Shown: positions 23,953 through 25,047, counted from the first letter of the stretch. The stretch is 40,899 nt of DNA from a virus (IMGVR_UViG_2778261393_000006); one strand, 5' to 3'. Notes: generated by a model from the letters alone, not told the origin. Translations and numbers: made by a program.

Positions 23953-25047
23953 ATGAGCAGACCGGACTGGGGGGCGTTGCAGCAGGAGTATATTGCTGAA
24001 TACACCCGCTCCGGTATATCTCCGGTGGCATGGTGTGAAGCAAGGGGACTGAATTACGCAACAGCCCGTCGTTACATCAAAAAAACTCCGAAAAATGCGC
24101 AGACAGAAATGTGCAAAACTGCGCAAAAAAGTGCGCAGAAAAAATCTGCGCAGACTGCACAAAAGCGGAACGAAAAATCTCAGGAAAAAAAGCCAGTATT
24201 CGATGCGGGCCTGAATGAGGGCGACGCGGAGGAATTTTCGTTCTGTCCCGATGAATTCGGCATTTCTGACCAGCAGGCTAAGTTTGCGATGCTTGTTGCT
24301 CAGGGTAAAAAGCCGACAGAGGCGTACCGACTAGCCGGTTATGAGGGGCAAGGTGCGACAGCTAATAGCAACGCCAGTCGTATGCTTAGAAATGCCAGGG
24401 TTTTTCGCGCTATCAGCTACTTCCGCAATCAGTACCAGAAACGCTATACCGCAGACCTGGATTTACTAGTGAGTCAGTTGATGGCCATTGTCCTGGCCGA
24501 CCCCAATCAGCTTGCACAATTTCGCCGTGTTAACTGCCGTTATTGCTGGGGCGAGAATCATCTCTACCAGTGGCGCGATATAGCAGAATTCGACAAGGCA
24601 GCGGCGCAGGCTTCCAGAGATGGCAAACCCGAACCGGAATATGGAGGCCTCGGCTTTGTTGATAACGCCATACCCAATCCGGACTGCCCGAAGTGCTGCG
24701 GTGAGGGAACGGGACAGCTTTATATGGCTGATACCACTCTGCTTGATGGGGATGCGCGGCAATTATATGCAGGGGCAAAATTCGGAAAATTCGGCGTTGA
24801 GATCCTGCTGGAGGATAAGGCTGCCGCCCGGCGTGAATTGTTGCGTTTGCTTTCTGCTGGCGGGGCTTTATGTGCAGATAAGCGGCTACAGGAACTGGAA
24901 ATTGAACGGCGCAGAATGGAAAACCAGAAGCTGCGCAAAGAGATCGAAACGGTGGAAGATAATGAACATCCCCAGCCTGTGGCGATCAATATTAATGTGG
25001 TTGATGCCAGAGTAAGGAGTGATGAAGATGATCTCTCCGACGCTTAA
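23953..25047 (+). CDS. Terminase small subunit (atypically large, with C-terminal Cys4 zinc-ribbon and coiled coil)
   Basis: 364-aa ORF immediately upstream of terL; central region (QQAKFAMLVAQGKKPTEAYRLAGYEG...NASRMLRNARV) resembles terminase small-subunit family motif; CRYCWGE...CPKCCGEG cysteine pairs. Confidence 0.6.
   Translation: MSRPDWGALQQEYIAEYTRSGISPVAWCEARGLNYATARRYIKKTPKNAQTEMCKTAQKSAQKKSAQTAQKRNEKSQEKKPVFDAGLNEGDAEEFSFCPDEFGISDQQAKFAMLVAQGKKPTEAYRLAGYEGQGATANSNASRMLRNARVFRAISYFRNQYQKRYTADLDLLVSQLMAIVLADPNQLAQFRRVNCRYCWGENHLYQWRDIAEFDKAAAQASRDGKPEPEYGGLGFVDNAIPNPDCPKCCGEGTGQLYMADTTLLDGDARQLYAGAKFGKFGVEILLEDKAAARRELLRLLSAGGALCADKRLQELEIERRRMENQKLRKEIETVEDNEHPQPVAININVVDARVRSDEDDLSDA

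Follow-up and report, generated by a model that had tools for sequence, protein, structure and literature searches.

A hexamer array inside the small terminase gene of a Rac-like Escherichia coli prophage as a candidate recognition element of a P1-type packaging site

Introduction

Is a cluster of short repeats inside a small terminase gene read as DNA, as part of the site at which headful packaging begins (pac), or does it only spell out a flexible stretch of protein? The question is raised by terS, the gene for the small terminase subunit (TerS) of a Rac-like lambdoid prophage of Escherichia coli, which lies in the window analyzed here, a stretch of DNA of 40,899 nucleotides (IMGVR_UViG_2778261393_000006). 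In the 5' part of this gene the hexamer TGCGCA is repeated, and a sequence-only reading of the window had offered both answers, namely a recognition element of a pac or a cohesive-end (cos) site, or a linker rich in Ala, Gln and Lys. Our comparison with related loci shows that the hexamers are conserved and selected as DNA. We further estimate, with a probability of roughly 0.68, that the array at 24096–24161 represents the recognition part of the headful packaging site of the prophage, a pac of the type known from phage P1.

Packaging sites of this kind have been identified in very few phages. According to a recent review pac sequences vary widely, and the pac site of phage ES18 is still unknown. 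In the literature we found no report that links TGCGCA repeats, a zinc ribbon or the TerS family described here to packaging. The features on which the argument is built are the following.

23953–25047, + strand: terS, small terminase subunit gene, 364 aa (PF03592 Terminase_2, phrog_51, RefSeq WP_000089448)
24096–24161 (nt 144–209 of terS), no strand assigned: hexamer array with four TGCGCA and two degenerate copies, proposed as the stretch of pac that TerS binds
24132–24152, no strand assigned: inverted repeat formed by hexamers 4 and 5, TGCGCAGA-5 nt-TCTGCGCA, perfect over 8 bp
23953–24084, + strand, residues 1–44: HTH1, an extra N-terminal helix-turn-helix (HTH), PacA-like by AlphaFold (AF2) model, phrog_1711 match and hhalign
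24085–24252, + strand, residues 45 to ∼100: linker (tether) between HTH1 and the core, with a basic part rich in AQK followed by an acidic part, predicted to be disordered

Results

Hexamers are clustered in the linker-coding part of terS

The repeats are present as the sequence-only reading had described them. TGCGCA(G/A)A begins on the + strand at 24096, 24120, 24132 and 24147, and two variants lie on the same strand, TGTGCAAA from 24110 (hexamer TGTGCA) and TGCACAAA from 24156 (hexamer TGCACA), so that all six copies fit TG(C/T)(G/A)CA. A rough periodicity of 12 bp, which had also been noted, holds for the mean distance of 12 nt but not for the individual start-to-start spacings, which are irregular at 14, 10, 12, 15 and 9 nt. 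TGCGCA occurs 19 times in the 40.9-kb window against 17 expected occurrences, and four of these fall within 57 nt; counted as TGYRCA, six copies are found within 66 nt. The sole further TGCGCA in terS is located at 24932. None of 200 first-order Markov simulations of the window contained a 70-nt span with four TGCGCA or six TGYRCA, and a Poisson estimate for the cluster is ∼1e-5 for the whole window.

Five of the copies are translated as x-Ala-Gln, whereas the copy at 24110 is read in another frame (ATG TGC AAA, M-C-K). Its counterpart in relatives is a perfect TGCGCA (ATG CGC AAA, M-R-K), and TGTGCA of the window is, judged by this alignment, a mutated copy of the perfect hexamer.

Selection acts on the DNA and not on the peptide

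The simplest alternative is that the repeats are the DNA image of a low-complexity, flexible and basic linker, generated by slippage or duplication and functionless as DNA. It agrees with the predicted disorder of the segment (model confidence, pLDDT, ∼48–67 over residues 45–95), with its being the most variable part of the protein among close relatives, including insertions and deletions, and with the imperfect tandem periods of 12 and 36 nt that Tandem Repeats Finder reports in the array. The linker DNA contains 46% A, compared with 26% for the window. We compared the terS genes of relatives, using a genome-wide collection of 80 loci from many Enterobacterales genera, 43 of which encode an HTH1 with ..ARR[YH]IK.., and an independent set of 60 distinct linkers from IMG/VR viral contigs. 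A single-sequence scan of viral contigs returned only close relatives among its matches.

All 43 ARR[YH]IK loci carry TGCGCA within nt 105–330 of terS, with 3–10 copies each. The total of 237 copies corresponds to 24.5 per kb in this interval, compared with 0.59 per kb elsewhere in the loci (∼42-fold). These copies are distributed over all three reading frames, with 171 in xxT-GCG-CAx, 47 in xTG-CGC-Axx and 19 in TGC-GCA, and the same mix was obtained for the 60 IMG/VR linkers (237/60/23; 3–8 copies each). Codon choice follows the hexamer as well. Ala-Gln in the linker is encoded as T-GCG-CA in 131 of 148 cases (89%) but in only 39 of 168 (23%) elsewhere (Fisher p = 1e-33, a value that, like the other p-values, overstates independence since the loci are phylogenetically related), and 196 hexamers were observed where synonymous resampling predicted 20 (∼10-fold). 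In alignments the third codon position varies almost throughout the HTH1-coding part. Each of the six positions of the hexamers, by contrast, shows a conservation of ≥90%, and the hexamers remain invariant across genera next to synonymous sites that are saturated. Even terS genes of Klebsiella phages with no more than ∼40% identity have six TGCGCA at the equivalent place and in three frames, as ACT GCG CAA (TAQ), CTG CGC ACT (LRT) and TGC GCA (CA). Finally, the 150-nt segment with the highest 7-mer repetitiveness of a ∼3.9-kb locus coincides with the linker in 60 of the 70 loci with an N-terminal extension and in none of the nine without.

The linker is thus variable as protein and its hexamers are conserved as DNA. 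The occurrence of the hexamers at conserved positions in three frames, together with the conservation of synonymous sites, shows that the AQK-rich peptide is a by-product of the DNA motif and not a selected feature. The multi-frame and synonymous-site patterns do not hinge on the independence of the loci. The suggestion that the repeats merely encode a flexible linker is contradicted by the frames, the codons and the synonymous sites alike, and we consider a linker without any function at the DNA level scarcely credible.

Three linkers with shifted frames (P0036, P0011 and P0007) were considered as a test for DNA that is kept while the peptide changes but were not used as evidence. The DNA of P0036 and P0011 (L174–L176, Logan assemblies) differs only by ±1 in poly-A runs (A7–A9); the apparent frameshifts, which are compensated across the tether, are probably homopolymer sequencing errors, although they may reflect real slippage.

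Two further arrangements were seen among the relatives. Klebsiella-type loci (L024–L026, L030, L033, L034, L039, L040, L043, L067 and others) contain a further group of TGCGCA, with two to three copies at terS nt ∼347–388, ∼150 nt downstream of the first cluster, in a bipartite layout like that of P1. In L071 (Yersinia aleksiciae) the repeat occurs in both orientations at terS nt ∼140–190, as GGTTCGCA ×2 followed by TGCGAACC ×2.

The array adjoins a PacA-like HTH, as does the pac of P1

In the AF2 model of TerS (mean pLDDT 85, and >95 across residues 100–300), HTH1 comprises helices 6–20, 24–30 and 35–38 at a pLDDT of ∼90–95, with ..NYATARRYIKK as putative recognition helix. Residues 6–80 match phrog_1711, the PacA family (E = 3.8e-5), and in hhalign the HTH1 profile aligns to residues 3–42 of P1 PacA (PacA 1–64 used; probability 89%, E = 2e-6). 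On the basis of these profile matches HTH1 is homologous to the PacA N-terminus, which reads ..NTARRYLR.. at residues 33–40 in the annotated P1 genome.

The pac of P1 is located within pacA and consists of seven hexanucleotide repeats, TGATCA/G (PMC11260489). Synonymous recoding of these hexamers lowered P1 packaging ∼9-fold, and the hexamers are methylation targets (PMC10028697). In the annotated genome we find TGATCA at nt 193, 200, 212 and 227 of pacA (cluster 193–232) and at nt 335 and 346 (335–351), in two frames; the mapped pac cleavages at nt 276–285 are flanked by these hexamers, and a site for integration host factor (IHF) lies at nt 256–268. The array of the window resembles this arrangement in several ways. 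It is an array of hexanucleotides in the 5' part of the small-subunit gene that follows a homologous N-terminal HTH, its copies occupy more than one reading frame, its word has the form TGnnCA, and it is found at nt 144–209 of terS, where the P1 hexamers span nt 193–351 of pacA. The match in location, repeat nature and homologous HTH is the reason why we interpret the array as a pac element. Of what the sequence-only reading had proposed, the part that concerns a DNA element, as opposed to a mere linker, very probably stands. The position of the array, which adjoins a PacA-like HTH and corresponds to that of the P1 pac, is in line with the proposal; the role in packaging we infer from this likeness. 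The most fitting description of the element is that of a variant P1-type pac architecture.

The two systems also differ. The array begins ∼10 nt after the HTH1-coding part in the window, compared with ∼60 nt in P1, and the remainder of TerS is unrelated, being of the phrog_51/Terminase_2 type with a four-cysteine (Cys4) insertion rather than phrog_1711.

A number of observations speak against a P1-type pac and have to be set beside this agreement. In addition to the relatedness of the loci mentioned above, the word TGCGCA, unlike TGATCA/G, contains no GATC, so that Dam could exert no control. A single cluster of four to six copies is present in the window, where P1 has the order HEX4-cleavage-HEX3. 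A consensus scan found no IHF consensus WATCARNNNNTTR within terS or several kb of it, the nearest occurrences being at 16334–16346 and 28375–28387. The ON4706xx "phage" records that carry terS are prophages predicted in silico and come without termini. Moreover, linkage by itself would lead to the co-inheritance of HTH1 and the adjacent array, which is thus no proof that HTH1 reads the hexamers; nor is the relation of helix to motif one-to-one, as P1 PacA has ARRY with TGATCA, and locus L052 and protein P0158 have another type of HTH with TGCGCA. Lastly, the palindromic hexamers give rise to a very stable RNA or single-strand fold (24080–24180, −29.8 kcal/mol, z −4.9) and to a hairpin on the minus strand (24152–24132) that, with the T run following it, scores as an intrinsic-terminator-like structure.

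Fold and hairpin, and the phrog_309-like small open reading frame (ORF) situated just upstream of terS, speak for an alternative in which the array functions at the nucleic-acid level but serves some purpose other than recognition for packaging, for instance an mRNA or single-strand structure that tunes terS and terL, an antisense terminator, or a set of late-gene operators bound by TerS or by another phage protein such as the product of the 69-aa ORF. The inverted repeat is probably a by-product of palindromic hexamers spaced by A runs. Neither a promoter scan nor Rfam gave a match in or adjoining terS, and the direct repeats that replace TGCGCA in sister lineages (see below) are not palindromic and cannot pair together, which argues against an RNA structure. 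What speaks against the upstream ORF as regulator is that the phage relatives from Klebsiella and Yersinia have the array but not the ORF, and what speaks against a non-packaging role in general is the homologous array of P1, which is a proven pac element. We regard this alternative as unlikely; a second or different role for the array is nevertheless possible.

Different HTH1 lineages carry different repeat words

The reading of the array as the recognition part of pac is supported by the other lineages of HTH1. They have other repeats in the corresponding stretch, again read in several frames, and their flanks lack these words. GTACGCA ×4–5 is found with the helix ..AIRKRAKKxGW.., GGGCAAA ×3 with ..ALRYMAxKxGW.., and further lineages have GTGGAAAC ×3, AAGTCAC ×5 and GGTCGGA ×3. 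The helix ..AKRYIK.. occurs with TGCGAA(T) ×4–9 in Yersinia phage vB_YenM_29.18, Klebsiella phage RothC and Pasteurella phage Pmp11. Locus L052 (Pseudescherichia vulneris) and protein P0158 have an HTH of the form ..STLRY[LW]AK[KQ]NGW.. followed by TGCGCA or Ala-Gln repeats. A simple recognition code, in which one residue of the helix specifies one base, was rejected given P1 PacA (ARRY with TGATCA) and L052.

The HTH1 domain is also found on TerS bodies of the phrog_370 and phrog_1711 types. With a phrog_370 body and an ARRY helix, Aeromonas phiARM81mr has TGCGCA ×7 and E. coli phage GER2 TGCGCA ×5. The phrog_370 group includes the TerS of Shiga toxin (Stx) phages such as 933W, VT2-Sakai and GER2. 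Their linkers likewise harbour repeats directly behind an HTH1 module, but these phages differ from the window in the TerS body and, in 933W, in the word. The terS gene of 933W (L091 1501–2307) contains (C/T)GATCAT ×4 at an exact spacing of 12 nt directly after the HTH1-coding part (peptide IDHEIDHKTDHEIDH), and each repeat includes a Dam GATC site, as in the pac of P1. This type of array was seen at two loci, L091 (933W) and L092 (phi367), and the HTH1 domain in >200 Stx-phage records; we found no description of a pac site for these Stx phages in the literature. The TerS proteins of 933W and GER2 (L090) are identical over the first 17 aa and ∼93% identical from residue ∼95 onward; recognition helix, linker and repeat word, in contrast, are not the same ((C/T)GATCAT ×4 and TGCGCA ×5, respectively). 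Judged from this pattern, the difference looks like the swap of a cassette made up of HTH and array.

Phages of the same host, E. coli, use different words (TGCGCA, GATCAT and TGATCA), which makes it unlikely that a host factor reads them and likely that the reader is encoded by the phage and varies along with the word. The same observation bears on another explanation, in which the hexamers are targets of DNA modification (GCGC methylation, or hypermodification linked to a TET-associated glycosyltransferase, TAGT) or of a nucleoid protein and are not read by TerS. A TAGT gene lies 190 nt upstream of terS, and the hexamers of P1 are methylation targets, as mentioned above. However, no methyltransferase or TET gene was identified in a search that was not exhaustive, the array is kept in phages without a TAGT neighbour, and phages of one host differ in their motifs. 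We regard this explanation as very unlikely.

Taken together, HTH1 and an array of its own sites, encoded in the DNA of the tether, may form a portable and self-contained cassette for packaging specificity that is present on at least three unrelated scaffolds (G1P-like with Cys4, 933W/Stx and P1 PacA) and can be swapped as a unit, as 933W and GER2 would illustrate. We consider the existence of such a cassette about as likely as not. A pattern of this kind, an HTH that travels with its own sites, was not found described in the literature. The proposed cassette common to three TerS scaffolds is the most interesting lead of this analysis.

Comparison with other packaging systems

In phage P22 pac lies within the coding sequence of the small terminase gp3, and mutations at wobble positions attenuate it (PMC11260489). 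The proposed pac of the window would likewise be embedded in the small-terminase gene, but the P22 site is a single one of ∼22 bp in the middle of the gene, without a repeat array or an accessory HTH. SPP1 and SF6 have repeated boxes (pacL/pacR) that are read by a ring of canonical HTHs, and their G1P lacks HTH1, the tether and the Cys4 insertion.

In lambda gpNu1 recognizes the repeated sites R1–R3 of cosB through its N-terminal winged HTH and so positions the large subunit. The principle of several repeated sites read by an HTH of the small subunit is thus shared, whereas lambda packages through cohesive ends with the help of IHF, has its sites outside the coding sequence and uses a large subunit (TerL) of the GpA type. 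The TerL of the window is of the Terminase_6N/6C, T4-like type, there is no IHF consensus near terS as reported above, and the array resembles the pac of P1 rather than cosB. Neither a GpA-type TerL nor a cosB/cosN arrangement was thus found, and a cos site, which had been named as the other option for the repeats, is unlikely.

TerS combines a G1P-like core with three additional segments

Outside HTH1 and the linker, TerS can be divided into the following parts.

24259–24432, + strand, residues ∼103–160: HTH2, the canonical TerS DNA-binding domain, like that of SF6/SPP1 G1P
24511–24726, + strand, residues ∼187–258: Cys4 insertion, a putative zinc ribbon within the oligomerisation core
24817–25044, + strand: C-terminal long helix (residues 289–337) and acidic tail, a putative TerL-specific module

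TerS matches phrog_51 with E = 2.4e-76 and Pfam PF03592 Terminase_2 with E = 2.4e-8 (35.1 bits; gathering cut-off 26.1); the latter match extends over residues 122–321 but covers only 110 profile positions. When a family profile built from 98 sequences is aligned to PDB 3zqp, the small terminase G1P of SF6 (E = 5e-17), the match is split into two parts by an insertion of ∼95 positions; a DNA-binding HTH domain of the G1P type is present. The length of the protein had been taken as a sign of an atypical TerS. Its extra residues have three sources, namely the N-terminal HTH with the linker (∼100 aa), the Cys4 insertion of ∼95 positions and the putative C-terminal TerL-specific module. The protein itself is not atypical. 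Among 5426 complete E. coli genomes, 906 (∼17%) have the terS region, mostly at ≥95% identity, and E. coli 7/2 (NZ_CP023820, terS at 1565176–1566270) has an identical copy; the Cys4-bearing core defines a large TerS subfamily with at least 1259 clusters at 50% identity (E < 1e-10). This subfamily, most members of which are ∼240–260 aa long, includes the TerS of Bcep22, BcepIL02, DC1, F116 and PEp14.

The two cysteine pairs noted in the sequence-only reading are present, CRYCW at residues 195–199 and CPKCC at residues 245–249. Across 98 homologues (26–53% identity) no variation was seen at C195, C198, C245 and C248 or at G200, G250 and G252, whereas C249 is not conserved. In the AF2 model the CxxC pairs adjoin the strands 188–193 and 253–258. 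A search of the PDB for a structure or zinc ribbon matching the insertion found none. Since the cysteines are invariant across the subfamily, the Cys4 motif can be regarded as characteristic of the family; it probably serves as a structural zinc site.

The region that had been called a C-terminal coiled coil is a predicted long helix in the AF2 model. In some E. coli relatives the C-terminus differs from residue ∼296 onward together with a different TerL gene, and the joint exchange fits a TerL-docking module formed by the helix and the tail. In one such locus, L002 (NZ_CP026085, 3354–5763), the last ∼70 residues of TerS are replaced and the TerL is different, with the breakpoint near position 24837 of the window.

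The gene downstream of terS encodes the large subunit.

25019–26329, + strand: terL, large terminase (Terminase_6N/6C), partner of terS; its start overlaps the 3' end of terS

With terS ending at 25047 and terL starting at 25019, terS lies directly upstream of terL and the two genes overlap. The relatives of this TerL are those of siphophages of the Jersey-, Kaguna- and Dhillonvirus types; no sequence relative of it was found in the PDB.

A possible course of packaging initiation

These parts can be joined in a tentative mechanism. TerS would have two DNA-binding modules, HTH2 on the oligomeric core and HTH1 on a disordered tether of ∼55 residues, and the DNA that encodes the tether would provide 4–6 hexamers as the proposed targets of HTH1. 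Several HTH1 domains of one TerS oligomer could then occupy neighbouring hexamers, which are spaced by 9–15 bp in A-rich DNA, and such multiple contacts would confer specificity by avidity. HTH2 and the core might handle DNA in a non-specific manner, as in G1P, while the Cys4 insertion would bind zinc and play a structural role in the oligomer. The C-terminal module would recruit the Terminase_6-type TerL, which would cut nearby and thereby begin the headful series. The composition of the tether would follow as well, since hexamers that must also be translated read x-Ala-Gln, Leu/Met-Arg-x or Cys-Ala depending on the frame.

If the array is indeed part of pac, the start and direction of headful packaging become predictable from sequence for a family present in ∼17% of the complete E. 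coli genomes, and the prediction extends to many other Enterobacterales prophages, to Stx-converting phages and to lateral transduction. HTH1 and its 6-bp word would constitute a compact pair that can be tested and re-engineered, for which ARRY/TGCGCA and AKRY/TGCGAA are natural variants, and that could be used to redirect the packaging of phagemids or transducing particles. It would also be a clear case of a DNA signal that dictates the amino-acid sequence of an overlapping protein segment. Should the cassette exist as outlined, pac could be read from sequence in hundreds of Enterobacterales prophages, including those of Shiga-toxin phages, and the odd compositions of the tethers (AQK, DH and GTQK) would be accounted for.

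The genes surrounding the packaging module

The order of genes, 5' to 3', is lysis genes, trkG, a gene for a ParB_N protein, the TAGT gene, a small ORF, terS, terL, a DUF4055 portal-like gene and a gene for a minor head protein. The small ORF adjoins terS on its upstream side.

23740–23949, + strand (69 aa, RefSeq), or from an ATG at 23698 (83 aa): small ORF with a phrog_309 match

The match is to the middle part (positions 145–218) of phrog_309, "terminase small subunit" (E = 8e-23). Every E. coli relative that we inspected has this ORF, located after the TAGT gene and before terS. It may encode an accessory packaging or DNA-binding protein, or be the relic of another TerS, and its membership in the packaging module is uncertain.

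The genes for the ParB_N-domain protein (22046–22837, + strand) and the TAGT (22809–23762, + strand) are located directly 5' of the packaging genes. The latter was identified by PF20691 (E = 4e-35), and its RefSeq name is sometimes "GREB1-related". The potassium transporter gene trkG (20433–21908, + strand), which follows the lysis genes and precedes the packaging module, is carried as cargo and marks the element as a complete Rac-type prophage. The early/regulatory region of the prophage contains an inserted transposase gene of an insertion sequence (DDE_Tnp_1 and DUF772; 12667–13683, − strand).

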